NCBI RefSeq assembly: GCF_003018115.1
Contig: NZ_CP027457.1
Reading direction: 5' to 3' (one strand)
Origin: Escherichia coli
Lineage (GTDB): Bacteria; Pseudomonadota; Gammaproteobacteria; Enterobacterales; Enterobacteriaceae
Length of the DNA stretch: 64,000 nt
Below are positions 1 to 49,504 of the stretch, one piece after another (position 1 is the first letter of the stretch; every line of letters begins with the position of its first letter). The notes under the pieces are model-generated. The model ran no database searches. It was not told the origin of the DNA and was given only the letters and a program-made list of their open reading frames with translations. Both the position numbers and the translations under genes were made by a program.

Positions 1-91
1 GAATGGCGTGAATATTGGCGTCATCTTTTAAAAAGTTAGCCAGCGTTTCCGCCGCTTCGTTCAGTTCGTTACGAATAAGATCCTGGTACAT
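1..91 (-). CDS. gmhA: Phosphoheptose isomerase GmhA, N-terminal 30 codons only (gene continues beyond window start)
   Basis: Reverse-complement of 1..91 reads [30 protein letters not shown]..., the GmhA N-terminus as I recall it; AGGA Shine-Dalgarno upstream of ATG; divergent from fadE as in K-12. Confidence 0.8.
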
Positions 92-292
92 GAGGATATC
101 CTTCAGCATAAATGTAATAGACAAAATGCAGTGTACCGGATACCGCCAAAAGCGAGAAGTACGGGCAGGTGCTATGACCAGGACTTTTTGACCTGAAGTG
201 CGGATAAAAACAGCAACAATGTGAGCTTTGCTGTAATTATATTGTAAACACATTGCTAAATGTTTTTACATCCACTACAACCATATCATCAC

Positions 293-309
293 AAGTGGTC
301 AGACCTCCT
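293..309 (+). promoter_or_regulatory. Candidate FadR operator upstream of fadE
   Basis: AAGTGGTCAGACCTCCT resembles the FadR half-site pattern CTGGTC-N-GACC seen at fad regulon operators; lies 22 bp upstream of the fadE start. Confidence 0.6.
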
Positions 310-330
310 ACAAGTAAGGGGCTTTTCGTT

Positions 331-2775
331 ATGATGATTTTGAGTATTCTCGCTACGGTTGTCCTGCTCGGCGCGTTGTTCTATCACCGCGTGAGCTTAT
401 TTATCAGCAGTCTGATTTTGCTCGCCTGGACAGCCGCCCTCGGCGTTGCTGGTCTGTGGTCGGCGTGGGTACTGGTGCCTCTGGCCATTATCCTCGTGCC
501 ATTTAACTTTGCGCCTATGCGTAAGTCGATGATTTCCGCGCCGGTATTTCGCGGTTTCCGTAAGGTGATGCCGCCGATGTCGCGCACTGAGAAAGAAGCG
601 ATTGATGCGGGCACCACCTGGTGGGAGGGCGACTTGTTCCAGGGCAAGCCGGACTGGAAAAAGCTGCATAACTATCCGCAGCCGCGCCTGACGGCTGAAG
701 AGCAAGCGTTTCTCGACGGCCCGGTAGAAGAAGCCTGCCGGATGGCGAATGATTTCCAGATCACCCATGAACTGGCGGATCTGCCGCCAGAGTTGTGGGC
801 GTACCTTAAAGAGCATCGCTTCTTCGCGATGATCATCAAAAAAGAGTACGGCGGGCTGGAGTTCTCGGCTTATGCCCAGTCTCGTGTGCTGCAAAAACTC
901 TCCGGCGTGAGCGGGATCCTGGCGATTACCGTCGGCGTGCCGAACTCATTAGGCCCGGGCGAGCTGCTGCAACATTACGGCACTGACGAGCAGAAAGATC
1001 ACTATCTGCCGCGTCTGGCGCGTGGTCAGGAAATCCCTTGTTTTGCGCTAACCAGCCCGGAAGCGGGTTCCGATGCGGGCGCGATTCCGGACACCGGGAT
1101 TGTCTGCATGGGTGAATGGCAGGGCCAGCAGGTGCTGGGCATGCGACTGACCTGGAACAAACGCTACATTACGCTGGCACCGATTGCGACCGTGCTGGGT
1201 CTGGCGTTTAAACTCTCCGACCCGGAAAAATTACTCGGCGGTGCAGAAGATTTAGGCATTACCTGTGCGCTGATCCCGACCACCACGCCGGGCGTGGAAA
1301 TTGGTCGTCGCCACTTCCCGCTGAACGTACCGTTCCAGAACGGACCGACGCGCGGTAAAGATGTCTTCGTGCCGATCGATTACATCATCGGCGGGCCGAA
1401 AATGGCCGGGCAAGGCTGGCGGATGCTGGTGGAGTGCCTCTCGGTAGGCCGCGGCATCACACTGCCTTCCAACTCAACCGGCGGCGTGAAATCGGTAGCG
1501 CTGGCAACCGGCGCGTATGCTCACATTCGCCGTCAGTTCAAAATCTCTATCGGTAAGATGGAAGGGATTGAAGAGCCGCTGGCGCGTATTGCCGGGAACG
1601 CTTATGTAATGGATGCTGCGGCATCGCTGATTACCTACGGCATTATGCTCGGCGAAAAACCTGCCGTGCTGTCGGCTATCGTTAAGTATCACTGTACCCA
1701 CCGCGGGCAGCAGTCGATTATTGATGCGATGGATATTACTGGTGGCAAAGGCATTATGCTCGGGCAAAGCAACTTCCTGGCGCGTGCTTACCAGGGCGCA
1801 CCGATTGCCATCACCGTTGAAGGGGCTAACATTCTGACCCGCAGCATGATGATCTTCGGACAAGGAGCGATTCGTTGCCATCCGTACGTGCTGGAAGAGA
1901 TGGAAGCGGCGAAGAACAATGACGTCAACGCGTTCGATAAACTGTTGTTCAAACATATCGGTCACGTCGGTAGCAACAAAGTTCGCAGCTTCTGGCTGGG
2001 CCTGACGCGCGGTTTAACCAGCAGCACGCCAACCGGCGATGCCACTAAACGCTACTATCAGCACCTGAACCGCCTGAGCGCCAACCTCGCCCTGCTTTCT
2101 GATGTCTCGATGGCAGTGCTGGGCGGCAGCCTGAAACGTCGTGAGCGTATCTCGGCACGTCTGGGGGATATTTTAAGCCAGCTTTACCTCGCCTCTGCCG
2201 TTCTGAAGCGTTATGACGACGAAGGCCGTAATGAAGCCGATCTGCCGCTGGTGCACTGGGGCGTACAGGATGCGCTGTATCAGGCAGAACAGGCGATGGA
2301 CGATTTACTGCAAAACTTCCCGAACCGCGTGGTTGCCGGGCTGCTGAATGTGGTGATCTTCCCGACCGGACGTCATTATCTGGCACCGTCTGACAAGCTG
2401 GATCATAAAGTGGCGAAGATTTTACAAGTGCCGAACGCCACCCGTTCCCGCATTGGTCGCGGTCAGTACCTGACGCCGAGCGAGCATAACCCGGTTGGTT
2501 TACTGGAAGAGGCGCTGGTGGATGTGATTGCCGCCGACCCGATTCATCAGCGGATCTGTAAAGAGCTGGGTAAAAACCTGCCATTTACCCGTCTGGATGA
2601 ACTGGCGCACAACGCGCTGGCGAAGGGGCTGATTGATAAAGATGAAGCCGCTATTCTGGTGAAAGCTGAAGAAAGCCGTCTGCGCAGTATTAACGTTGAT
2701 GACTTTGATCCGGAAGAGATGGCGACGAAGCCGGTAAAGTTGCCGGAGAAAGTGCGGAAAGTTGAAGCCGCGTAA
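331..2775 (+). CDS. fadE: Acyl-CoA dehydrogenase FadE (814 aa)
   Basis: ORF 253..2775; true start taken at the [24 protein letters not shown] methionine (pos 331), giving the 814-aa length I recall for FadE. Confidence 0.95.
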
Positions 2776-2783
2776 TTGAATAA

Positions 2784-2808
2784 CGGAGCCGAAAGGCTCC
2801 GTTTCTTT
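2784..2808 (+). terminator. Intrinsic terminator after fadE
   Basis: CGGAGCC-GAAA-GGCTCCG hairpin followed by TTTCTTT. Confidence 0.7.
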
Positions 2809-2817
2809 ATCCGCTAA

Positions 2818-3291
2818 TTATTTAAAATTAAAGCCATCCGGATGGTTTTCCAGGCTGCCGGTCAACGCCGCGAACAGCACCGTTTTACCATCAATCGAAA
2901 GCGCATCGTTCACATTCAACCAGGTGAGTTTCTCTTGCGACGTTTTCTCATCAATAGTCGAGAACAGCCCCGTCATCTGATTAGATTTCTCGGACCACAT
3001 CACAGCGATACGTTGCGAGCCACAGTCATGCGGTTTGCACGCGCTCATCACCTGATACGTCTCATCTCCCAACGTTACGGTTTGTGCAGGGGTATAAGTA
3101 CCGCCTTTCATCACCCAGGCAGGCAGCTTATGCCCTTGCACCATCTGATTAAATGCAGCTTTGGTGGTTTCGCCCTTTGCAAGGCTGCTAATGGTTAAAT
3201 CATCCTGCGCCATTGCACTGGTGGCGATGACCAGTGCGGCGACTGTCGTTATTGCCTTAAACATCATTCCTCCCGAGCTTATCCTGCCCAT
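2818..3291 (-). CDS. ivy: Periplasmic inhibitor of vertebrate C-type lysozyme, Ivy
   Basis: 157-aa ORF with signal peptide and CKPHDC motif; matches Ivy in sequence and position next to fadE. Confidence 0.93.
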   Translation of the reverse strand: MGRISSGGMMFKAITTVAALVIATSAMAQDDLTISSLAKGETTKAAFNQMVQGHKLPAWVMKGGTYTPAQTVTLGDETYQVMSACKPHDCGSQRIAVMWSEKSNQMTGLFSTIDEKTSQEKLTWLNVNDALSIDGKTVLFAALTGSLENHPDGFNFK

Positions 3292-3444
3292 GTTATTAAC
3301 CTTCTAAAGCCTGGCGATAACACGATAATTTGCAAATCAGATATTTCCAATATCAGCATTTGTTATCAATTTATTCTGCGCTAAGGCAACTGCCTGATAA
3401 GGTGTTAAAGTTATAAAACCCTTCGCATAAAGGAGTTGTACACC

Positions 3445-4212
3445 GTGCCTGGTTTGAAGATTACGCTTTTGCAGCAACCACTGGTGTGGATGGATGGCCC
3501 TGCCAACCTGCGTCATTTTGATCGTCAACTGGAAGGTATTACCGGGCGCGATGTGATCGTTCTACCGGAGATGTTTACCAGCGGCTTTGCCATGGAAGCG
3601 GCAGCTTCGTCGCTAGCACAAGATGACGTAGTGAACTGGATGACAGCTAAGGCGCAGCAGTGCAATGCGCTGATTGCAGGCAGTGTTGCATTACAAACGG
3701 AGTCTGGTTCGGTTAACCGCTTTTTGCTGGTTGAGCCGGGCGGCACGGTACATTTTTATGATAAGCGTCATCTGTTCCGCATGGCAGATGAGCATCTACA
3801 TTATAAAGCGGGCAATGCGCGAGTGATTGTGGAATGGCGCGGCTGGCGTATTTTGCCGCTGGTGTGCTACGACTTACGTTTTCCTGTGTGGTCGCGCAAT
3901 CTCAACGATTATGACCTCGCCCTGTACGTCGCCAACTGGCCTGCTCCGCGCTCTCTGCACTGGCAGGCATTGCTGACGGCCCGCGCGATTGAGAATCAGG
4001 CGTATGTGGCGGGATGCAATCGCGTCGGCAGCGATGGCAACGGCTGCCATTATCGCGGTGACAGCCGGGTGATTAATCCACAGGGCGAGATTATCGCTAC
4101 TGCCGACGCGCATCAGGCAACGCGCATTGATGCGGAGCTGTCGATGGCGGTGTTAAGGGAATATCGCGATAAGTTTCCGGCATGGCGGGATGCGGATGAG
4201 TTTAGGTTGTAG
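3445..4212 (+). CDS. yafV: Carbon-nitrogen hydrolase family protein YafV (omega-amidase)
   Basis: ORF 3436..4212; likely GTG start at 3445 ([15 protein letters not shown]...) 9 nt after AAGGAG; nitrilase-fold residues. Confidence 0.9.
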
Positions 4213-4257
4213 TGAGTGGGTGTTGTGTTTAGGGCTGGGGAGAGTCGGGGAAGACTA

Positions 4258-4640
4258 CGAAAGCCCGCTCTCCTGCGACCACTTTTATCATAGGAGTGTG
4301 GAAGTGCTTTTCCATCAATCGCGATGACGTCTTTGTCATTTGATGAATGGCAGTCACGCATCCAGTTAATAAAGCACTCGTGAAATTTTGCAGGACTGAT
4401 ACAGGATACAACTCTGGCAATGGTATCGTGAACAGGAATACCATTTTCAAAATCACCATATTGCTTCAAAAAATCGAGATGTGTTTCCCCAAAATCCTCT
4501 ATATCTTCCCAACCTTCTGCACCAGAAATAACGGCACAAATAGTCAACAGTAGAATATCCGATAATTTATGTTCCACGTTCCAGGCTTGTCTGTAATCGG
4601 GGATAACAGAAATATGTTCCATCAATTTTTTAAGTTCCAT
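4258..4640 (-). pseudogene. Internally deleted ISAs1-family (H-repeat) transposase copy
   Basis: First ~115 codons are near-identical to the intact copy at 4686..5822 ([20 protein letters not shown]...), then the frame diverges; nucleotide comparison shows the 5' part joined directly to the last ~30 bp of the element. Confidence 0.8.
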
Positions 4641-4676
4641 TTTGTTCTCCTTAATTATGTAAGGAGTATTTGATCC

Positions 4677-5860
4677 AGGGCAAGATTACGAAAGCCCGCT
4701 CCCCGCAAGGACTGACGCCAGATAGTTTCTGTCCATGGCTGCTTTTCGCATCTTACGTCTTAACCCTGCCTTGAATACCTTATCATTCGTCAAAATATTA
4801 ATAGCAATGTGCCGTATCCCTGAAAATAATTCCGCTGCATTTCCTCTTCTTATTCTGCAGTCGTCTTCATTCATTACCACGTCCAGGCGCCAGTGCAGCT
4901 TATTTTCCACGTGCCAGTGATTTCGGTTCGCTGTGGCGAACTTCTCTGCAGTTAAATCAGCAGAGCTGATATAATATCTGACCGTCATTTCGGGTTCTTT
5001 CTTTTGTTCTGCTATTATTGACCGAAAGGAGACTGCCACGCATAATTTCTTCAGCCCTTTCCATTCAAACGTGAAATCAATAAGTTCATCAGGGACATCG
5101 CAAACAATATGAAGACGGATTTCTTCTCTGCCGTGACTCTTTTCACTGATTGCGTAACTGTCATGCTCTGGATTATTTAATTCTTTCAGCGGAAATTTTT
5201 CCTCAAAGGCTTTATTTAGCCGCCCCTGGTTTCCTTTTACCGCGAATAAATAATCACCTCCCTGTTTTTGTATCTTCTCTGCAATATCTTTCTGGCAACC
5301 CATCGCATCAGTTGTGATGATTTTTCCTTTAATATCCAGCATGTTAAGAAGTTCTGGGATAGCTGTAATCTCATTAGATTTCTCATCCGTCCTGATCTGT
5401 CCGATGACCAGACTGTGCATTGTTGAGAACGCACTAATGACATGAATCGCTCCCCTGCGGCGACTCTTGTCATAAGAGTGCCGGAGCGTTTTTCCATCAA
5501 TTGCAATGACGTCTTTATCATCTGAAGAATGGCAGTCACGCATCCAGTTAATAAAGCACTCGTGAAATTTTGCAGGACTGATACAGGATACAACTCTGGC
5601 AATGGTATCGTGAACAGGAATACCATTTTCAAAATCACCATATTGCTTCAAAAAATCGAGATGTGTTTCCCCAAAATCCTCTATATCTTCCCAACCCTCT
5701 GCACCAGAAATGACGGCACAAATAGTCAACAGTAGAATATCTGACAATTTATGTTCTACTTTCCAGGCTTGTCTGTAATCGGGGATAATAGAAATATGTT
5801 CCATCAGTTTTTTAAGTTCCATTTTGTTCTCCTTATTTATGCAAGGAGTATTTGATCATA
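4677..5860 (-). mobile_element. Intact H-repeat (H-rpt) element, ISAs1 family
   Basis: Ends inferred from the repeated terminal sequences shared with the truncated copy (gggcaagattacgaaagcccgc... at the 3' end; ccttatttatgcaaggagtatttgatc at the 5' end); abuts the truncated copy in tandem. Confidence 0.75.
4686..5822 (-). CDS. ISAs1-family transposase (H-repeat-associated protein, YhhI-like), 378 aa
   Basis: 378-aa ORF typical of Rhs-associated H-rpt proteins (conserved DAMGCQ and [14 protein letters not shown] segments). Confidence 0.88.
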
Positions 5861-6290
5861 TATAAGCTATGAAAAATAGTTTTAGGTAATAAGGAATATC
5901 TCAATTATTGAACATTTAGCGCGAATTATTTAGTACAAAAAGTGTACTTCTGATGACCTTTCCCTGCTCCAAAGTCTTCTAAAATCAACAATGTAGACTC
6001 TTAATTATATTTATCAACACAATAATCTATCCTATTACTATCTTGACAAGAGAGAACCGTTTTTTATTTAAATATATGATACACATCATTAAATATATAA
6101 CCATACTTTTTCATAAGGCAATCTAACTTAGCTCTTAAATCACCAAAACCCATCACACCATAACATCTAATAGCCATTGCCACACGTCACCATGGATTTA
6201 TTTCCACCTGCAATTACTTCGTCCTAACTTTAATTTAATCTCAAGAAGCATTAAGATCTCAATAGCGAGCTTAATACTTCTTGAATAATA

Positions 6291-6668
6291 TCACTCCTGA
6301 CCAAAATTTTTCCACACTAATGCATGAGACTTTGATTTGTCACCCAGAAATTTACTTACATCTTGCCAAAGTAAAGAATTGCTATCGGTCGCAGTGACTA
6401 TTGCCTCTATAAGCCCTGTAGCTACAACTGTGGCCAATTCATCATCAAGCGAGACCATACCATCTTCGACATGTTTAAATATTTTTTCTCTTTCAATATC
6501 CCCCATTTCATAAAAATTTTTTACAATCGTTTTTCCAACCTGAGAGAACAACATAACCACCGGTGGCGTTTCTGGATGCCAGTATTCATTAGCTAATGAG
6601 ACTGTCTCAGACAAAACAGTGGAAAATGATGCCATTTTTTCTATATAACTAGCAATATATTGGTTCAT
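6291..6668 (-). CDS. Candidate cognate immunity protein for the Rhs C-terminal toxin (cytoplasmic, 125 aa)
   Basis: Small ORF immediately downstream of rhs; its ATG overlaps the rhs stop (TAATG); no signal peptide; AT-rich like the toxin-encoding tail of rhs. Confidence 0.75.
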   Translation of the reverse strand: MNQYIASYIEKMASFSTVLSETVSLANEYWHPETPPVVMLFSQVGKTIVKNFYEMGDIEREKIFKHVEDGMVSLDDELATVVATGLIEAIVTATDSNSLLWQDVSKFLGDKSKSHALVWKNFGQE

Positions 6669-9600
6669 TACTTGCCTCCCAAAGCATTCTGTAAATCCTG
6701 AAGAACGTTTTCTGCTGCTGCTCGATCCCCTGGAGATGCTGTTGGATTCTTATCCAACCAATCCTGTAAAGCCCTTGTATAATCCTGTGCTTTCAATACA
6801 TGTCCTCTACCACCAACTTTTTCACCTGTGGCCAATTCATAACGAACAGCATCTGCTGTGCTTCCACTTCCTACTTTTGCATTTGGCCGATAAAGATCGT
6901 CTATAATATTTTTCAAATTTGAATCTGTAACGTCGGGTTTTCCCATTTTCTGTCGCAATTCATCTTTATACCGTTCATGCTGCATACGATCCCTTGCGCT
7001 ATTCTCATCTTCTGGTCCCCATCCTCCCGGGCTTCCCGTACTGCCGCCGGCCAGGCAGTTCTTCTCTTCATCCGTCAAATCCTTCCCAACATTCGGCTGA
7101 CTCCCTGACGAATTATCATTCTCATGTGGGCTATCTAAAGGACAACTACTGGTCCAGTAACACATTTCAGCCTGAGAATTTATTAACTGCCCATCGCTCA
7201 GAGCCTTCCCGGCACGCCCATCATTAGCGAGAAGGTCATATCCCATTGGCCCAGCGACCACAGCCATTGCTCCAAGAGCAGGGGCAGCAGACGCCATAGC
7301 CGCCGTGACTGCATCAAAAGTCGCCGCCCCACCCGAAAGTAACGCCCCCCCAAATTCTGTTCCTGTTACTGTTGTGGCAGAACCAAGAACCAGTGTCTCA
7401 CCAGACAACCCAAGAGGATCCCCCCGCTGCACCGGGTTCAGCGGATACGCATACAGGTTCCATCCCCCCTTCAGCCCAATGGGATCCTGGGTGATATAGC
7501 GTCCCTGCAACGGATCGTAGTACCGGTTCCGGTTATAGTACAGCCCCGACTCCTCATCATACTGCTGCCCCGGCAGACGGAGTGACTGTTGAAGGTGCTG
7601 CGCGCTGGTTTCGCCCAGCAGGTTTCCCCACTCGTCATACTCCCCCTGCCACGCCGTTTCCCCTTCCGGGCTGATGAGCGCCAGCGGCAGTCCCCGGTGG
7701 TCGCAGTGGTAAAGATGAAGTTTCCTCTCCGGGATGTATTCCGCCTCCAGCTGTGCGGCCATCTGCTCCGCCGTCAGCCCGCACTGCGCAAGCCATGCCT
7801 CACTCTCCGCACTCACCGCTCCCGCGCGCAGTTCCCGCTCCAGCCTCCCCAGCATCACCGACAGCTCCGCCGGTAGCGTCACACCCGTGTCCTCCTGCAA
7901 CACCTCCGCCAGGCTCCGGTGCCGCGCCTTCGCCTGTTCGCCATTCTCTGTTTCGATTCTCAGGAGCGGCGTGAAGCTCCCCGGCTGGTATACCGTCTGG
8001 ATACGCGTGGTGCCGGTCTGTATCGTCGTCAGCCTGTCACCGTCCCACCCGTACCATGTCACCTCCGGTTTACGCGACAGCGACATCCACCCCGTCAGGT
8101 CACGCTCCCGCCGCCATACCCGTTTTCCCGTCCGGCGGCCCAGCGGGTCATAGAGGTACCGGCTCTCCACCTGTGGTTCGCCGTGCTGTATCCGCGTGTA
8201 GAACACCAGGCGGTGCTGGCTGTCGTAGTGATAGTGGTGGGTGCGCTCGTCGTGCATCCGGATAACCCCTTCCGGGATACGGTCCGTCTTCTCCGCCAGC
8301 CTGCCGTATTCATCGTGGCGGTAGACATAGTGCGCATCCTCCGCGATGCGGTTATCCGGCCACGCCGTGAGCGTGCTGTCCGGGTGCAGTTCCGGGTCCG
8401 GCAGCCGGTTTCCTGCCGGGTCCGTCGCATACGGGATATCAATGTCCAGGTTCGCTGCCGTGGTGTGGACGCCCGTCAGCCTTCCCGTGCCGCTGTAACG
8501 GTACTCCCGGCTCTCCTGCGGGCCGCTGATGCGGATTAGCTGTCCGTTGTCGTTCCACGTATACTCACGGTCAAGCTGCGGAAGGTTCAGGTGCCTGCTC
8601 CGGAGCTGGCCGCTGGTATTCCAGGCGGTGGCAAGTTCATATGCCTCCCCGCCGAAGCTGCGGGCCGTCTCACGGTGCAGCCGGTCCCGCGTGTACTCGA
8701 CCAGCGGCGTTCCGCCCAGCTTCATCCCCGCAAGATAACCGCTGCCATACGTCAGCCACTCCACCGGCGGCAGACCGTCCGGCTCCTGACGGGTCGCCAG
8801 CCCCTGTTCGCTGTACGCATGCCCCGTCTCATGCTCCCACAGCATCTCCCCCGTCTCCGGGTTCTCCACCGTCTGCCGTTCGCCCGTCAGGCGGCCTTTA
8901 TCGTCATAGCCGTAGTGGACCGACACGCGGTGGCCTTCACTGGTATGGCTGAGGGTGGTTAACCACCCGTGCTCATCATACTGCCACTGCTCTGCCGGGT
9001 CGCCGTTCACCGTCCGGTGCGTGATGCGGTCCGACGCATCGTAGTGCCAGAGGGTGATAAGCCCCTCGTCTTCACTCTGCGTGAGTTTTCCGGTCAGGTC
9101 ATAGTGGTAACGTTGCGTCCGGCCGTCAAAACCGCGCTGTTCAGTCAGCCTGTCCACCGGGTCATACCGGAACGTGGACTGGCTGCCGTTCTCGTTGGTC
9201 AGCACGGTGATGCGCCCGGCAGCGTCATACCCCATGCTGCGCGTAAGACCGCCTTCCGTCACACTCACCGGACGCCCGTGTTTATCATATTCGATGGTGC
9301 TGCGTTTACCGTCCGGTGATATCGTTGCTGTCAGGTCGCCTGCGGCGCTGTACTCATAACGGATTTCACGCCCCTGCGCATCCTTCTGACTGACCAGTTG
9401 CCCACGCGGGTTATAACTGCTGTAAGTGCTGATGCCTTCCTCCCGGTGAACGGCGATTTGTTGACCGTACCAGTCATACTCATACCGCGTCGTGTACCCC
9501 GAGCAGTCCGTGAAGGCCCGAAGCTGACCGTACCGGTTTCGCGTTATTCTCCGCGTCACCCCGGTTCCGTCTTCCACCGCGCCGGGCAGGCTACTGCGGG

Positions 9601-11173
9601 GGGAGTCATAAAACCAGCGCGTAATGTTACCGTTGCGCGAGGTCTCTTCTGCCAGTCGGCCCTGACGGTCATATTTCCGGTTGCTGCGTAAACCATCCGG
9701 ATATGTCACTGAAGTCAGTTGCAACTGGCTGTTGTAACCATACCGTACCGTCCTGCCGTCCGGCAGTATCACTGAAGTCAGCTTTCCAGACGCCATATGC
9801 AGCCGGTACTCCGTCCGCCGCCCCGCCGCATCCGTCTGCGCCTTCAGCCTCCCCGCCTCATCATACTCGCTGCGGGTGATGCTCCCGTCCGCATGTTCCT
9901 TCTTCACCACACGCTTCAGGCCACCTTCGCCCTCCGTGTACAGCACCTCCCGCCGGTTCAGGCTGTCCGTGATGGTCACACGGTCCTGCCCGTACTCAAA
10001 GCGGTAGTCCAGCCCCTCCGGGTTGACCTGTTCTGTCACCCGACCGGTATCATCATACCGGTAGCGGCTCTCCGGCCTCCCTGCATAATGGTGCGCCACC
10101 ATCCGCCCGGCGTGCTGCACATCATAAGTAAACCCGCGCACCTGCGTCCCGCTGCGGTCATACACCGCCCGCAGTTCTCCGCTGGCCGTGTACGTGTAGC
10201 GCGCCAGCGGCGCAGTCGGCTGTTCATCCGGGTATGCCGGGTCGTGTGTCAGCCACACCGCCTCCAGCCGGATACCGTTATCGGCACCGTACTCTGTACC
10301 GGCGGGCAGCGTGTCGGGGAAAGCTGAAGAAAAGGAAGAAGAGGAAACAGAACGGGGACTGGCCGGGGAAGATAAGGAAGACTCGCGCTGTTTACGGAAG
10401 GCTTCCGCCCGCTGCGCCTGTGTGGTCAGCGCCAGGTGAAAACGGCGGCCCGCGCCGTCCGTCACCCCCGTCACCGCGCCCGCCACGTCACCCTCCGCCG
10501 CCCTGTGAAAGGCCAGCGTCCGACCAAAGCCATCCACCACGCCCGTCAGCACCCGGTATGCGGGCGGCTCCGGCGGCAGCACCTCGTCCGCCTCCGGCAC
10601 CCGCTCCGGCCAGCTGAGCACCAGCCACTGCCCGGTTGTGCTGACAGCCATCATATAGGTGTGTGGACTCAGACGGACCGCTTCCGGCAGCGCCCGCCAG
10701 AGCCGGGCCAGCGGGTGGCCTTTGTGTTGTTTCAGCACCCCACCCCTTGCCAGCCAGAGTGACTCGCTGCGGCTGTAGCTTATCTCGCCGGGAAACAGCG
10801 GCTCAAAGTGAATGCTCCTGCCGCCGTTGTCGTTGAGTATCAGTTCCCGCTCATGAATCTGTAAGCGGATATCAAAGGGGGCTTTCCAGCCGGGGCCAAA
10901 CACCCCCACCGGCGCGGGCGTCCTGGTCCGGTAACTGCTGTAGGCACGGGAAAGAATGAACGGCAGCGGGCCGGGCAGCGCAAGGTCCGTCTCGCCCGGC
11001 AGCACCTTCGCACCCAGTAGCGGGTTCACCGGGTTAGCATAGGTAATCCCTCCCGGACACACCGAGCAGGCCACTCCCGTCGGCGCACCTATCAGCACCC
11101 CCGCTGAACCCTGCACAATATCCAGTCCCTTGCGGGTCATATCACCCTGCCGCGCCGCCGGTTTTCCGCCCAT
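6668..11173 (-). CDS. rhs: PAAR-domain Rhs effector with variable C-terminal toxin domain (1501 aa)
   Basis: N-terminus [13 protein letters not shown]...[10 protein letters not shown] (PAAR-like); long YD/RHS repeat core; core-end motif [13 protein letters not shown] ~276 aa before the C-terminus; divergent, lower-GC C-terminal ~110 aa. Confidence 0.93.
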
Positions 11174-11248: not shown

Positions 11249-13390
11249 TCAAAATTGCCGCATATCCGGCATTCCGGGGGGTAAATCTTTCGGCACAGGC
11301 GCATCCGGTACAGGTTGTGTGGCACCACAGTTCCAGTTAATCACCGGCGCATCACCGTTCACATCCGACTCCCCTTCCAGATGAATGTGCGTACCATTAA
11401 GAAATATGCTTCCGTCCTTCGTCAGCACCAGCCTTGCCTTACCACAGCAGAGTTCAAGATGCTCACCGGCAGAATAAACTGCTGTTTGTCCGGTGTTTTC
11501 CTTCATCGTCTTGCCCACCGAGAAGGTGACGTTATTCCCTACATTGACGCTGTAGCCCATTCCCACCATCAGTGATTTATGCAGCCCTACCTGTGAGGAC
11601 TGCAACAACGCCACCGAGGTATTCATAATGCCGCCTACCGTCGTCTGATACGCCACACCCACCGTCAGCGCACGAATGATCCCCACCTTTTCAACCTGGT
11701 TTGATCCCACTTTGATAATCTGGTTACTGCCCACCGTTTCCACCTGGTTGACACCAACCGTCTGTATCTGATTAACGCCAATGTTCTGGATCTGGTTATT
11801 GGTAACGGTGATCGCCTGGTTGTTACCTATTTTTTCGGCATGGTTGTTTATCACATCAGTGGTGCGGTTATTCAGCACCTCGGTGTTCATGTTCTTCTGC
11901 GCGTGGATGTAGACCTGTTCTTTCCCTGTCGCATCGTCAAACTTCAGTTCATTAAACCCGCTGCCCTTATAGGTTTTCGAACGAATGGTCATCTGCGTCT
12001 TTGTTCCCGGCAGGCTGCCGGGTGTGCGGTTTTCCTGGTGGTAGGTGCGCCCCATAATGATCGGCTGGTCCGGATCGCCGTTGAGGAAGTCCACAATCAC
12101 CTCCTGACCCACACGCGGTATCGCCAGGTTACCAAACCCGGTGCCTGCCCACGCCTGTGCCACACGGATCCAGCATGAACTGTCCTGGTTTGACGGGTTA
12201 TAGCGGTCCCAGTTAAATTTCACCCGCACGCGACCATGTTCGTCGCAGAAGATTTCCTCGCCTGCCGGTCCCGTCACGACGGCGCTCTGCGGGCCATCCA
12301 CCAGCGGTTTCAGCAACGGCTGTGGTCGCCATGTTCTGTCTGCCGGTATTACCGCAAAATGGTTATCCAGCGTGGTGCCTGAACCCCTGCGTCCCGGTAC
12401 CGCCTGCGGCTGTTCGCCGTGAAGATCGCTCGCCACCACCTGCCATTCCCGGTTCAGGTTCGCCTGCGGATGCCCCGTCAGCACAATTCGCCGTCCCGGC
12501 CATATCTCCGGCGAACGGCTTGTTCCGCGCGCCACTTCTGCGTTGTTTCGCCAGCCATCCATCTGCCAGCGGGCAAAGTTCTGCCCGTGGGCACCCTTGA
12601 AACGTCCGGGGTAGTCATACACTTCATACTGTGTGCGCTGGTAATCCTGGTACTGGCCTTCCTGATCAAAACGCCCTGCCCAGCCGGGTCGTTTAAAGGT
12701 GTAGTCTTTGGTCACCACGGAAGAAGGGCGGATTTGTGCGCTGTAGCGAAACTGGCTGATGCAGAGGGTGCTTACCTCGGTACGGGTGTTCGGATTCCAG
12801 GGGATCTCAAAGGACTCCGGCAGATAACGCACGGTATCGCACAGGACCAGGCTCTGGTCGGTACTTTTTTGCGCGTGCTCCTCATAAAAGAAGATGCCTT
12901 CCTCCGCCGCCATCCGGCACAGGAAATCGTAATCAGTCTCACCGTACTGGACACAAAACTCACGGGAAGGATGCGGTTCACTGAACAGCGGACTCCACTC
13001 GGTCACCCCGTTTTCCTGCAATATCGTGCCGAGGATGCTTTTGATGTCCTCGTTCTGGAAGATACGGAAGTTCTGGCGCAGCCCTGTGCGCCACAGCGGC
13101 GGGCATACCTTCATGCTGTACAGCTTCTGGTTTTTGTCGTTCTCCCCCAGTTCAAACCAGGTCACCACACCTTTCACCCGGCGCTGTACGTCATCGCCCT
13201 GCCATATCGTCAGGTAGGCCATTTTGTCGAGGATCTGCTGGAATTCAAGGGAGAGAAACTGCTGGCTGACCAGAGAGAGAGCGAGGGAAAAAAGCGAAGA
13301 GAGTGACTGGTTCAGATGAAAGGAGACCACCGCAAAAGCATCCGGTGGCAGGCCGTCCACTTCCAGCGTGAAACGTAATCCGGTTGACAT
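11249..13390 (-). CDS. vgrG: T6SS spike protein VgrG (713 aa)
   Basis: Typical VgrG N-terminus (MSTGLRFTLEVDGLPPDAFAVVSF), gp27/gp5-like core and repetitive beta-helix region (NNQ/VGxNQ repeats). Confidence 0.93.
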   Translation of the reverse strand: MSTGLRFTLEVDGLPPDAFAVVSFHLNQSLSSLFSLALSLVSQQFLSLEFQQILDKMAYLTIWQGDDVQRRVKGVVTWFELGENDKNQKLYSMKVCPPLWRTGLRQNFRIFQNEDIKSILGTILQENGVTEWSPLFSEPHPSREFCVQYGETDYDFLCRMAAEEGIFFYEEHAQKSTDQSLVLCDTVRYLPESFEIPWNPNTRTEVSTLCISQFRYSAQIRPSSVVTKDYTFKRPGWAGRFDQEGQYQDYQRTQYEVYDYPGRFKGAHGQNFARWQMDGWRNNAEVARGTSRSPEIWPGRRIVLTGHPQANLNREWQVVASDLHGEQPQAVPGRRGSGTTLDNHFAVIPADRTWRPQPLLKPLVDGPQSAVVTGPAGEEIFCDEHGRVRVKFNWDRYNPSNQDSSCWIRVAQAWAGTGFGNLAIPRVGQEVIVDFLNGDPDQPIIMGRTYHQENRTPGSLPGTKTQMTIRSKTYKGSGFNELKFDDATGKEQVYIHAQKNMNTEVLNNRTTDVINNHAEKIGNNQAITVTNNQIQNIGVNQIQTVGVNQVETVGSNQIIKVGSNQVEKVGIIRALTVGVAYQTTVGGIMNTSVALLQSSQVGLHKSLMVGMGYSVNVGNNVTFSVGKTMKENTGQTAVYSAGEHLELCCGKARLVLTKDGSIFLNGTHIHLEGESDVNGDAPVINWNCGATQPVPDAPVPKDLPPGMPDMRQF

Positions 13391-13599: not shown

Positions 13600-14118
13600 T
13601 TATGCTTCCAGCGGTGCGCGCCAGTCGTCGGCACCGGAGGTGCCAGATTTGACGTGTTCCCATTCAATTTTGCGGTAGGCCAGTGAAACTTCGAGCAACT
13701 GGGTGAACTCGCGTTTCGCCGGGTCCTGGCAATGCGGCATATGCAGTTTCATATCGACAATCGTCGAATCAGTCAGGCGGGTAGTGAAATAATGCTCCTG
13801 TTTGCCTTCCACAGAGGTACGCCACCAGTGAAGTTCAGTGGTTGGCAGCATTTCGCCGGAGGCCAGTGCGTTGTACATCAGCGGAACCGCTTTGTTCAGC
13901 GCCACGGTAAAAATGAAAGGCTTGTGAGCACGCTGACCCGCAGGCTGACCGGACTGAGGATCGGTCGGGACAGTAACGTTATGCAGGAATTCCTGCACCA
14001 GCATCTCGTCTTCGTGCCCCTGCACATAGATGTTGCCGACAGAATCAGCGGTAAATGCACCTGCAGTAATATTTCCCTGGGTCTGACCAGTGATGGAGAT
14101 ATAACACGGTGTTGGCAT
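13600..14118 (-). CDS. hcp: T6SS inner-tube protein Hcp (172 aa)
   Basis: 172-aa ORF with an Hcp-like N-terminus (MPTPCYISITGQTQGNITAGAF...); size and position upstream of vgrG. Confidence 0.93.
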   Translation of the reverse strand: MPTPCYISITGQTQGNITAGAFTADSVGNIYVQGHEDEMLVQEFLHNVTVPTDPQSGQPAGQRAHKPFIFTVALNKAVPLMYNALASGEMLPTTELHWWRTSVEGKQEHYFTTRLTDSTIVDMKLHMPHCQDPAKREFTQLLEVSLAYRKIEWEHVKSGTSGADDWRAPLEA

Positions 14119-37668: not shown

Positions 37669-37745
37669 TGGCGGAACGGACGGGACTCGAACCCGCGACC
37701 CCCTGCGTGACAGGCAGGTATTCTAACCGACTGAACTACCGCTCC
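37669..37745 (-). tRNA. aspV: tRNA-Asp (GTC)
   Basis: Reverse complement reads GGAGCGGTAGTTCAGTCGGTTAGAATACCTGCCTGTCACGCAGGGGGTCGCGGGTTCGAGTCCCGTCCGTTCCGCCA. Confidence 0.97.
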
Positions 37746-45892: not shown

Positions 45893-45969
45893 TGGCGGAA
45901 CGGACGGGACTCGAACCCGCGACCCCCTGCGTGACAGGCAGGTATTCTAACCGACTGAACTACCGCTCC
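45893..45969 (-). tRNA. aspU: tRNA-Asp (GTC), distal gene of rrnH
   Basis: Identical tRNA-Asp sequence in reverse complement immediately 3' of the 5S rRNA. Confidence 0.97.
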
Positions 45970-46021
45970 ACCGAATTCTTTTACAACCACCGGTTTTATG
46001 ACCGGCTTACTGCTTTATTTG

Positions 46022-46141
46022 ATGCCTGGCAGTTCCCTACTCTCGCATGGGGAGACCCCACACTACCATCGGCGCTACGGCGTTTCACTTCTGAGTTCGG
46101 CATGGGGTCAGGTGGGACCACCGCGCTACGGCCGCCAGGCA
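46022..46141 (-). rRNA. rrfH: 5S ribosomal RNA
   Basis: Reverse complement matches E. coli 5S rRNA (TGCCTGGCGGCCGTAGCGCGGTGGTCCCACCTGACCCCATGCCGAACTCAG...). Confidence 0.97.
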
Positions 46142-46233
46142 AATTCTGTTATATCAGACCGCTTCTGCGTTCTGATTTAATCTGTATCAGGCTGAAAATC
46201 TTCTCTCATCCGCCAAAACACCTTCGGCGTTGT

Positions 46234-49137
<2,904 letters not shown>

Positions 49138-49309
49138 TCACAACCCGAAGATGTTTCACTTCAGAGTTGCGAAAATTTGAGAGACTCGAACACACTTAAA
49201 AGTGTGTCGTTTCAATTTTCAGCTTGATCCAGATTTTTAAAGAGCAAAACTTCGCAGTGAACCTTTGCAGGTACACTCTGAAGTATTTTTTATTTAATCA
49301 CTACAGAGA

Positions 49310-49385
49310 TGGTGGAGCTATGCGGGATCGAACCGCAGACCTCCTGCGTGCAAAGCAGGCGCTCTCCCAGCTGAGCTATAGCCCC
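49310..49385 (-). tRNA. alaV: tRNA-Ala (TGC), 16S-23S spacer
   Basis: Reverse complement reads GGGGCTATAGCTCAGCTGGGAGAGCGCCTGCTTTGCACGCAGGAGGTCTGCGGTTCGATCCCGCATAGCTCCACCA. Confidence 0.97.
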
Positions 49386-49427
49386 ATAACATGTAGTTAA
49401 AACCTCTTCAAATTTGCCGTGCAAATT

Positions 49428-49504
<77 letters not shown>

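Follow-up and report, generated by a model that had tools for sequence, protein, structure and literature searches.

H-repeats (H-rpts) have belonged to the textbook description of Rhs elements since the 1990s. The ISAs1 family of insertion sequences (IS), which includes ISAs1 of Aeromonas salmonicida and IS1358 of Vibrio cholerae, comprises elements of 1.2 to 1.5 kb that carry one DDE ORF, have CAGGG ends, and generate target duplications of 8 to 10 bp; head-to-tail IS dimers, e.g., (IS30)2 and (IS21)2, are likewise known. In K-12, the RhsB-linked H-rpt that encodes YhhI carries the RefSeq label ISEc1 family, and a second H-rpt is represented by the pseudogene yafF, which we take to be the "H-rpt at min 5" of Hill and co-workers in the 1990s. 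Transposition of H-rpts in E. coli has not been observed experimentally (PMC3032704), and IS elements are barely mentioned by Jackson et al. (2009).

The window analyzed here, 64,000 nucleotides of Escherichia coli DNA (NZ_CP027457.1), contains a T6SS island that extends from yafV, the final core-genome gene before the island (PGAP stop at 4212), to the tRNA-Asp gene aspV (37669-37745). The PGAP annotation was carried over from the chromosome of ETEC F9792, which was 99.99% identical over window positions 1-7535; the best complete-genome match to the Rhs core was about 96% identical. In addition to the genes listed in Table 1, the T6SS genes in the window encode TssB, C, F, G, K, ClpV, TssM, TssA/VasL, and a second Hcp. 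A first-pass annotation of this DNA had described the classical Rhs layout inside a T6SS island, and this was borne out by the succession of Hcp, VgrG, Rhs, an overlapping small immunity ORF, an AT-rich spacer, and H-rpt. The Rhs protein matched the Pfam domains RHS_repeat (eight stretches), RHS, and DUF6531, and the motif PxxxxDPxGL, which is the conserved end of the Rhs core, could be read in its translation, with the variable tip after it; the C-terminal 251 aa matched no Pfam family. The 125-aa putative immunity ORF gave only a sub-threshold match to DUF7674 in Pfam and none in NCBIfam. The GC content was 0.58-0.67 at positions 7200-8000 (core) versus 0.28-0.40 at positions 5800-6800 (tip and downstream DNA). 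No ORF of at least 40 aa and no Rfam match was found in the spacer, and an Rfam scan of positions 3300-6800 returned zero matches.

Two H-rpt copies occupy the distal end of the Rhs element, the intact copy lying 324 bp past the immunity gene and the remnant after it. The position downstream of the Rhs core, tip, and immunity gene is that of the RhsB-linked ISEc1/H-rpt of K-12, from which nothing essential differs, except that the window copy adjoins a second, deleted copy and not unique DNA. Compared with classical and T6SS-linked Rhs loci, the gene order, the GC-rich core set against an AT-rich tip and spacer, and the distal H-rpt are all alike, but the window has no orphan modules of C-terminal toxin (CT) and immunity gene, whereas in strain 2013C-4974 one such module is enclosed by two H-rpts. 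The window holds a single CT/immunity pair, and the "array" proposed earlier was therefore an overstatement.

Table 1. Features at the yafV-side edge of the island, in window coordinates
Feature	Position	Strand	Basis or remark
yafV (2-oxoglutaramate amidase)	3445..4212	+	PGAP annotation mapped from F9792 chromosome; ORF list
175-aa frameshifted remnant ORF	4113..4640	-	ORF list, profile searches; treated as pseudogene
Dead H-rpt/ISEc1 remnant, 430 bp	4246..4675	-	Right-terminal 28 bp joined to element positions 520..111
Degenerate right terminus of remnant, CGGGG-AAGACTACGAAAGCCCGCTCTCC (canonical CAGGGCAAGATTACG...)	4246..4273	-	
J1, deletion junction, 8-bp microhomology CGCTC(T/C)CC	4266..4273		
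J2, intact right terminus (CAGGG...) abutting remnant position 111	4675..4676		
Intact ISEc1/H-rpt, 1,291 bp	4676..5966	-	Full-length 96.9% alignment to K-12 yhhI H-rpt; termini
Right terminal inverted repeat CAGGGCAAGATTACGAAAG	4676..4694		
Transposase, ISAs1-family DDE, 378 aa, intact	4686..5822	-	ORF list, profile searches
Left terminal inverted repeat, reverse complement CAGGGAAAGGTCATCAGAAG	5947..5966		
AT-rich spacer between H-rpt and immunity gene	5967..6290		GC about 0.28-0.35
Putative Rhs immunity protein, 125 aa	6291..6668	-	Start overlaps Rhs stop
Rhs core protein, 1,501 aa, variable C-terminal tip	6668..11173	-	
VgrG	11249-13390		Upstream of Rhs
Hcp	13600-14118		Upstream of Rhs

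The intact element is compact, with 1,291 bp and one 378-aa ORF, and both its assignment to the ISAs1-family H-rpts and the intactness of its transposase were confirmed. The transposase scored 414.5 bits against the NCBIfam ISAs1 equivalog NF033564 (cutoff, 70), covering profile positions 1-314 of 314; it contained the Pfam domains DDE_Tnp_1_assoc and DDE_Tnp_1 and shared 373 of 378 residues with K-12 YhhI (99% amino acid identity). A ribosome-binding site, AAGGAG, was located 7 nt upstream of the ATG, and PGAP names this copy "ISAs1-like element ISEc1 family transposase." The nucleotide alignment with the K-12 yhhI H-rpt spanned element positions 1-1291, and homology to that element and to four other copies ended exactly at CAGGG.../...CCCTG. 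The flanks of five copies diverged at these exact ends, four independent flanks beginning right after ...CCCTG. The element end had previously been placed at 5860, 106 bp short of the true end at 5966. Both terminal inverted repeats were of the CAGGG type and matched each other at 12 of the first 18 positions.

The single DDE ORF, the size, and the CAGGG ends are thus those of the ISAs1 family, but neither window copy has a target duplication. No target-site duplication of 4-12 bp was found at the distal copy or at the composite of both copies, and none was found at K-12 yhhI, at copy E2 of locus L002, or at locus L003. However, perfect 10-bp duplications flank six related complete copies, namely, those of SE11, 0-4, 2014C-3307, JNE151685 (two copies), and A15. 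Because of these six, the missing duplication in the window most probably reflects a later rearrangement and provides no argument for another family.

As the first-pass annotation had claimed, two directly repeated H-rpts follow yafV, one intact and one internally deleted. Over 410 aligned bp the copies were 93.7% identical (E = 1.7e-180), a similarity far greater than chance would give, and the proximal copy is a related H-rpt and not an unrelated sequence. Its extent had been given less accurately: the retention of the last ~30 bp (28 bp) stood, but 125 codons rather than ~115 were retained and 751 bp rather than ~800 bp was lost internally, and it had gone unnoticed that the left end lacks its outermost 110 bp. 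The 751-bp loss was bounded by two 8-bp CGCTCCCC repeats, and both parental repeats were still present in the intact copy (4697-4704 and 5448-5455). The deletion left nothing of the DDE catalytic domain and caused a frameshift, and PGAP labels the remnant "ISAs1 family transposase, incomplete." The degenerate terminus of the remnant (CGGGG-AAG) lies at the ancestral yafV junction, which single-copy strains and K-12 have as well. Indeed, K-12 yafF shares with the window both this chromosomal junction and the degenerate terminal 27-28 bp; the two differ in that an undeleted copy survives in K-12 as its 3' 278 bp, the remainder having disappeared along with the T6SS island, while the window holds the 751-bp-deleted copy, the intact element, and the whole island. 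With the island running from yafV to aspV and the yafF remnant at the same junction in K-12, the proposal that the pair marks the yafV-side junction of the island was upheld.

The first-pass annotation had implicitly treated the proximal copy as a deletion derivative of the distal copy's duplicate, i.e., in situ tandem duplication of one H-rpt followed by internal deletion in the proximal duplicate. Such an origin would agree with the head-to-tail placement of two copies that share one orientation and with their complete identity over a block of 149 bp (4366-4514). However, the identity of the retained segments formed a mosaic of 78 to 100% (78% at 4266-4315, next to the deletion; 90% at 4316-4365; 100% at 4366-4514; and ~94% beyond), so that "near-identity" had been too strong a term, and the 149-bp block is a low-variability region of H-rpts, with 6 variable sites among 9 copies. 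Moreover, 17 sites in positions 4271-4344 were common to the deleted copies of three strains, including a solo copy with a full left end, and different in six intact copies. Coding differences between the proximal and distal copies were mostly synonymous (14 synonymous and 7 nonsynonymous; binomial P = 2.6e-4 versus a roughly assumed synonymous fraction of 0.28), an excess that would fit divergence while both copies were functional genes.

The distribution of the two junctions also argued against in situ duplication. A comparison across strains had been suggested earlier and was run here on 5,426 complete E. coli genomes. J1 was found unbroken and colinear in 1,087 of them (~20%), and J2, the tandem junction, was present in 115 (~2%; counted with a 60-bp query at E ≤ 1e-12), the deleted allele being ten times commoner than the tandem. 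The deleted allele often remains as a scar even in genomes that have lost the island. LH50-c carries a solo deleted copy with both termini, and a 600-bp query from it matched ~71 records at ≥95% identity, a rough figure since 87% of the query matches any intact copy. In UTAK-1, a 185-bp segment between yafV and the H-rpt matched no other sequence retrieved. On these alignments, the proximal copy proved to be a dead remnant from a different, older H-rpt lineage at the yafV junction, and in situ duplication is hardly credible.

The 10 bp before J2 (4666-4675) read GTATTTGATC, the putative insertion target of the intact element. The corresponding reciprocal junction, consisting of the left terminus of the intact element (E), GTATTTGATC, and positions 110..1 of the older element (E'), was predicted beforehand and was found in four genomes. 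It sits at the nfrA/nfrB-linked Rhs locus and not at yafV, and the E copy there is only 95% identical to that of the window; this would fit equally a single event split by later exchange and two hits at a hot spot. No genome among those surveyed had an un-collapsed nested structure at yafV. Alternatively, J2 could have arisen through an illegitimate or homologous join, for instance, with an imported H-rpt-spacer-immunity-CT segment or through IS-end-mediated adjacent deletion from a more distant resident copy. Block exchange does occur, TUM13936 having an almost identical block of ~4.5 kb (about 4000-8500) with diverged flanks; J2 is without target-site duplication; and the two H-rpts of locus L002 surround an orphan module that adjacent deletion could remove. 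On the other hand, J2 coincides to the base with the inverted-repeat terminus, the reciprocal junction with the same decamer exists, and a terminus-precise join implies transposase action even for the adjacent-deletion variant. We therefore regard such a join as unlikely.

Because related copies carry perfect 10-bp duplications, the pair is best read as the probable product of nested transposition with subsequent loss of one flank. An older-lineage H-rpt at the yafV junction lost 751 bp between 8-bp direct repeats, and in a sub-lineage (~2% of genomes) an intact ISEc1 would have transposed in the same orientation into remnant positions 111-120, insertion at GTATTTGATC creating the junction 4675/4676. 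At its outer end the remnant would then have been shortened by 110-120 bp, which were now duplicated beside the left end of the newcomer and would have been lost either by homologous collapse of a short direct repeat or by replacement of the adjoining block through recombination; since this outer part was lost, no target-site duplication would be left. A possible footprint of collapse was seen in ATCC 8739, where the outer ~25 bp of the distal copy is of the variant type found in the E' tail. The data would fit the 751-bp deletion having come either before or after the insertion. Nested insertion has a textbook counterpart in SE11, where an ISEc1 copy with its 10-bp duplication is nested inside another H-rpt. 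The window also resembles known IS dimers and nested IS in that two copies of one IS abut in the same orientation. Unlike in the dimers, however, the junction is not IR-IR, because the proximal copy has no left end, and this precludes its behaving like a reactive dimer junction. The whole account, in which ISEc1 nested into an older deleted remnant, a flank was later lost, and no cellular function is served, is considered likely.

The pair had also been proposed as a recombination substrate, and we considered the possibility that it is a working cassette that drives turnover of the Rhs C-terminal toxin and immunity genes. The left terminus of the H-rpt is the exact point of the switch from conserved DNA to strain-specific immunity/CT DNA, an orphan immunity module lies between the two H-rpts of locus L002, and two different Rhs loci each carry a half-junction of a single target site. 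In the window, however, both copies are distal to the sole CT/immunity module. Since they lie on the same side of it, a crossover would remove IS DNA only, with no toxin/immunity exchange, and the claim of CT/immunity turnover through the pair fails for this arrangement. The predicted crossover product, searched for as a chimeric query, had no one-piece match in the 5,426 genomes, while the tandem junction was stably inherited in 115; and the one clear block exchange seen ran from within yafV to within the Rhs core, with neither endpoint in an H-rpt. A working cassette is thus very improbable. A broader and still tentative possibility is that ISEc1/H-rpt, commonly regarded as an inert repeat of Rhs elements, has moved within E. 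coli and preferentially inserts into, or directly beside, the left end of resident H-rpts, GTATTTGATC (111-120) perhaps being a hot spot, and that nesting, with collapse of one or the other of the repeats so created, builds and erodes the head-to-tail H-rpt arrays found distally in Rhs loci. Seven terminus-precise junctions of one H-rpt near another were found at several loci, with queries built for same-orientation pairs. If this possibility were true, nesting and collapse would spread homology between Rhs loci and could help to move toxin/immunity modules.

The frameshifted ORF of the remnant was considered as a possible source of function. Its codons 1-125 correspond to the transposase N terminus, with a complete DDE_Tnp_1_assoc domain and no catalytic domain, and after codon 125 it continues antisense into the 3' end of yafV. 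A 175-aa truncated product with DDE_Tnp_1_assoc only might have been kept because it regulates or inhibits ISEc1 transposition: the ORF was open and had a ribosome-binding site in five of five strains with a complete remnant, the N-terminal domain of its product is intact, and the ORF lies 45 bp beyond the stop codon of the intact transposase gene, with which it is codirectional. Yet in six of the sampled J1-positive genomes IS1, IS66, or other DNA interrupted the remnant, at positions that varied, and the differences among remnants of different strains were states present in intact copies, which suggests gene conversion. The remnant also lacks its own upstream 110 bp, and promoter-like sites were at chance level (11 found versus 8.4 ± 2.7 expected); in the promoter/terminator scan overall, counts were near the shuffled expectation. 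Although the ORF was open where the remnant was complete, the conservation test gave no sign of selection. A retained regulatory role is therefore extremely improbable. In itself the pair serves no cellular function; it is passive mobile-element debris, a source of local homology and a marker of the island edge.

Together, these results indicate that the region is ordinary, already known and annotated mobile-element debris at an island border, both copies being already labeled by RefSeq PGAP, and not a new system. Its importance beyond annotation hygiene is small. With the boundaries corrected, positions 5859-5966 (108 bp), formerly counted as AT-rich spacer, fall within the IS. The deleted copy next to yafV represents an old allele that ~20% of complete genomes carry and that stably marks the aspV-yafV edge even after island loss. 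Lastly, as far as can be judged from genome comparison, a supposedly immobile repeat appears to have transposed within E. coli, as indicated by the 10-bp duplications, the nested copy, and the confirmed prediction of the reciprocal junction.

The gene order between ivy and aspV places the two H-repeats (H-rpts) of the window at the yafV edge of the aspV-yafV T6SS/Rhs island, which is well known.

Gene order from ivy to aspV in the window
Feature	Position	Strand	Detail
ivy	2818-3291	-	
yafV	3445-4212	+	
Two H-rpt copies	between yafV and the AT-rich spacer		
AT-rich spacer	between the H-rpts and the immunity-like ORF		324 bp
Immunity-like ORF	6291-6668	-	125 aa
Rhs protein	6668-11173	-	1,501 aa
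VgrG and Hcp	beyond the Rhs gene		
Full T6SS cluster			TssB/C/F/G/K, ClpV, TssM, TssA/VasL, second Hcp
tRNA-Asp aspV	37669-37745		

The first-pass annotation had described two directly repeated H-rpts after yafV, the distal one with an intact 378-aa ISAs1-family transposase, and both statements held. Direct repeats of 410 bp (4266-4675 versus 5448-5857; 93.7% identity; E = 1.7e-180) and 27 bp (4247-4273 versus 4678-4704) were found. The intact distal ORF has the domains DDE_Tnp_1_assoc and DDE_Tnp_1; its score with the ISAs1 equivalog model of NCBIfam was 414.5 bits (cutoff, 70), and 373 of its 378 residues were identical to those of K-12 YhhI. The element end, however, had been placed at 5860, which is too early. 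Since the distal copy aligned from position 1 to 1291 both with the H-rpt linked to RhsB in K-12 (96.9%) and with another H-rpt, from strain 2013C-4974, and since flanks diverged exactly after ...CCCTG in five independent copies, the intact element is 4676-5966 (1,291 bp); the 108 bp counted as spacer (5859-5966) are IS sequence. Its terminal inverted repeats are imperfect (CAGGGCAAGATTACGAAAG and CAGGGAAAGGTCATCAGAAG). No target-site duplication was found around the distal copy or around the distal-proximal composite.

The proximal copy had been called internally deleted, and the deletion is real, but its size is 751 bp and a second truncation had been overlooked. The 751 bp were lost between two 8-bp direct repeats, CGCTCCCC, both of which survive in the intact copy (4697-4704 and 5448-5455). 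This deletion removed the entire catalytic domain and shifted the frame, leaving an ORF of 175 aa that extends, in antisense, into the end of yafV. At its left end the proximal copy also lacks the outer 110 bp: element position 111 is its last, and this base directly abuts the exact terminus of the intact copy (4675|4676). Its identity to the distal copy was mosaic, at 78% over 4266-4315, 90% over 4316-4365, 100% over 4366-4514, and approximately 94% further on. When nine copies were compared, the identical 149-bp block varied little in all H-rpts, and 17 sites within 4271-4344 distinguished the deleted copies (window, ATCC 8739, and LH50-c, which share the same states) from each of the six intact copies in the comparison. 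The coding changes that separate the two window copies were mostly synonymous (14 versus 7 nonsynonymous; binomial P = 2.6e-4 against a roughly assumed synonymous fraction of 0.28), as would be expected of divergence in functional genes. Because of the 17 lineage sites and this synonymous excess, the remnant descends from a distinct, older H-rpt lineage. The view implied earlier, that it is a decayed duplicate of its neighbor, was rejected on the mosaic identity, the 17 sites, and the synonymous excess.

The two copies are joined exactly at the outermost base of the inverted repeat of the intact one, which suggests that transposase made the join. A comparable structure was found in strain SE11 (comparison locus L017, 2593-4954), where a complete 1,291-bp ISEc1 is nested at positions 70 to 79, in the left end of a second H-rpt, and is flanked by a perfect 10-bp duplication, AATGAGGAAT. 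The host H-rpt is itself internally deleted by 228 bp (positions 540 to 311), and its left end becomes uninterrupted once the insert is taken out. The SE11-type arrangement, recognized by a 130-bp span in the tandem-junction search, is present in many genomes. Duplications of 10 bp are typical of the ISAs1 family, and perfect ones also flanked complete copies in strains 0-4, 2014C-3307, JNE151685 (two copies), and A15, each of them 0 to 255 bp from another H-rpt. Because of these duplications, ISEc1 appears to have transposed in E. coli. Strain 0-4 (L018, 1264-5017) carries three ISEc1 copies head to tail; one copy ends at position 192 against the terminus of the next, the duplication TTATAAACCC flanks one copy, and the 12-bp terminal repeat GATCTTTCCCTG is duplicated just beyond the left end of the middle copy.

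If the intact element had inserted at positions 111 to 120 of the remnant, the far side should read as the left terminus of a complete ISEc1 (...CCCTG), then GTATTTGATC, then remnant positions 110 to 1. In a strict search, the predicted reciprocal 70-mer was present in four genomes at 97% identity, in all four at an Rhs locus linked to nfrA/nfrB and not at yafV. The locus consists of flank, complete ISEc1 (1291 to 1), GTATTTGATC followed by a partial H-rpt (110 to 1), and flank; next to this pair, these genomes also have a papain-fold toxin tip and a fragment of a SymE toxin. The nfrB-locus junction would thus complement the window join, the two being opposite sides of a nested insertion at one decamer. 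Insertion of ISEc1 at positions 111 to 120 of a resident remnant would yield a nested structure with two direct repeats, one of approximately 120 bp and, on the opposite side, one of up to 1,181 bp; the window-type structure would remain if one of them collapsed, and the nfrB type if the other did. In ATCC 8739 (L005, 6720-6745), the distal H-rpt ends in ~25 bp of variant sequence, AAAAGCGGCGTTAGGTGATCTTTCCCTG, that is unlike window positions 5941-5966 and recurs at the end of the H-rpt tail of the nfrB locus. This variant end appears to be a trace of such a collapse, and its occurrence at both loci suggests that hybrid left ends were formed by recombination. The two halves may represent either one ancestral event later split between loci or a decamer that was hit twice, and the 751-bp deletion may be either earlier or later than the insertion. 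Later rearrangement would account for the missing target-site duplication at the window copies.

Among 5,426 complete E. coli genomes, the 751-bp deletion junction was found beside yafV as one colinear piece in 1,087, and the tandem junction was found in 115, always at a single chromosomal place. In LH50-c, the deleted copy stands alone with both of its termini, and a different immunity gene and Rhs come immediately after it; ATCC 8739 and 214-4 have the tandem of the window, but their distal transposase contains a stop codon and their immunity gene is of the sel1 type; and in 2013C-4974 and 510016 the yafV junction holds one intact copy. Other sampled architectures have the remnant interrupted by IS66, by IS1 with the island mostly or wholly lost, or by other DNA. 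K-12 has yafF at this junction, which corresponds to the 3' 278 bp of a copy without the deletion. Since this junction recurs across architectures, the yafV-side H-rpt end is a durable scar of the island border, and the proposal that the H-rpts mark the left junction of the island is supported. In 13P484A, PCN061, ETEC6, and CP131_Sichuan, the T6SS/Rhs island is largely or wholly absent and IS1 abuts a shortened piece of the deleted H-rpt (aspV directly follows IS1 in ETEC6); these look like IS1-mediated island deletions that spare the scar. UTAK-1 has a 185-bp segment (L003, 4141-4325) between the yafV flank and an H-rpt with a canonical terminus. The segment matched none of the other fetched loci, and the degenerate 27-bp end found elsewhere is missing, so UTAK-1 carries a different left-junction allele.

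Five strains have the 175-aa remnant ORF complete, and in each of them it is open and preceded by its ribosome-binding site. The remnant was interrupted at differing points in six of the sampled genomes with the deletion, between-strain differences in the ORF were states seen in intact copies, and promoter-like sites occurred only at chance level, all of which argue against maintenance; the ORF is treated as a pseudogene. The region matched no Rfam family.

The tandem pair had also been proposed as a likely substrate for recombination and for turnover of the Rhs C-terminal toxin tip (CT) and its immunity gene. Both H-rpts lie distal to the single CT/immunity module, so all that a crossover of the two can do is remove or amplify IS DNA, and the predicted 1,182-bp deletion product had a one-piece match in 0 of 5,426 genomes. 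The clearest exchange was a ~4.5-kb block (about 4000-8500) with 1 difference from TUM13936 (L009), comprising the yafV 3' end, both H-rpts, the immunity gene, the toxin tip, and part of the Rhs core. Its endpoints fall within yafV and the Rhs core, outside the H-rpts, which argues against the proposed role. The flanks differ by 1 to 3% on the yafV side and by far more in the Rhs core; such a near-identical block inside diverged flanks is a sign that it was recently transferred by recombination. The H-rpt left terminus is the exact border between conserved DNA and strain-specific immunity/CT DNA, and in 2013C-4974 an orphan module sits between two H-rpts; to describe H-rpts as module boundaries is therefore fair, but participation of this tandem pair in turnover is not supported.

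Window positions 1-7535 were 99.99% identical to ETEC strain F9792, which clusters with O169:H41 strains. In F9792 (L001, 9434-10738), a large deletion joins the Rhs gene, at the equivalent of 7535, to the C-terminal part of TssM/IcmF and takes out VgrG, Hcp, and most T6SS genes. The Rhs core of the window had a best match of ~96% among complete genomes in the collection. Since the tip after the DPLGL motif (~251 C-terminal aa, 6668-7420) matched no Pfam family even at E ≤ 1 and the 125-aa ORF had only a sub-threshold DUF7674 match, the two are an uncharacterized putative toxin/immunity pair. A second tRNA-Asp with tRNA-Ala and tRNA-Ile (45893-49504, minus strand) indicates an rRNA operon downstream of the island, in agreement with the rrnH-aspU neighborhood of K-12.

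Both copies are ISEc1, the H-repeat of classical Rhs elements, which was reportedly described by Hill and colleagues in the 1990s. The pair is real, ordinary, and already known, and RefSeq annotation covers both copies. The tested defining features of a classical T6SS-linked Rhs element were found in the window, the immunity gene being a putative one, as were those of the ISAs1 family except for a target-site duplication at these copies. H-rpts have been described as Rhs associated and are in ISfinder, with transposition not observed (PMC3032704). The gain is modest. The element boundaries were corrected, the deleted allele was found to be old and widespread, and the sequences indicate that this "repeat" was mobile and nests into its own kind.
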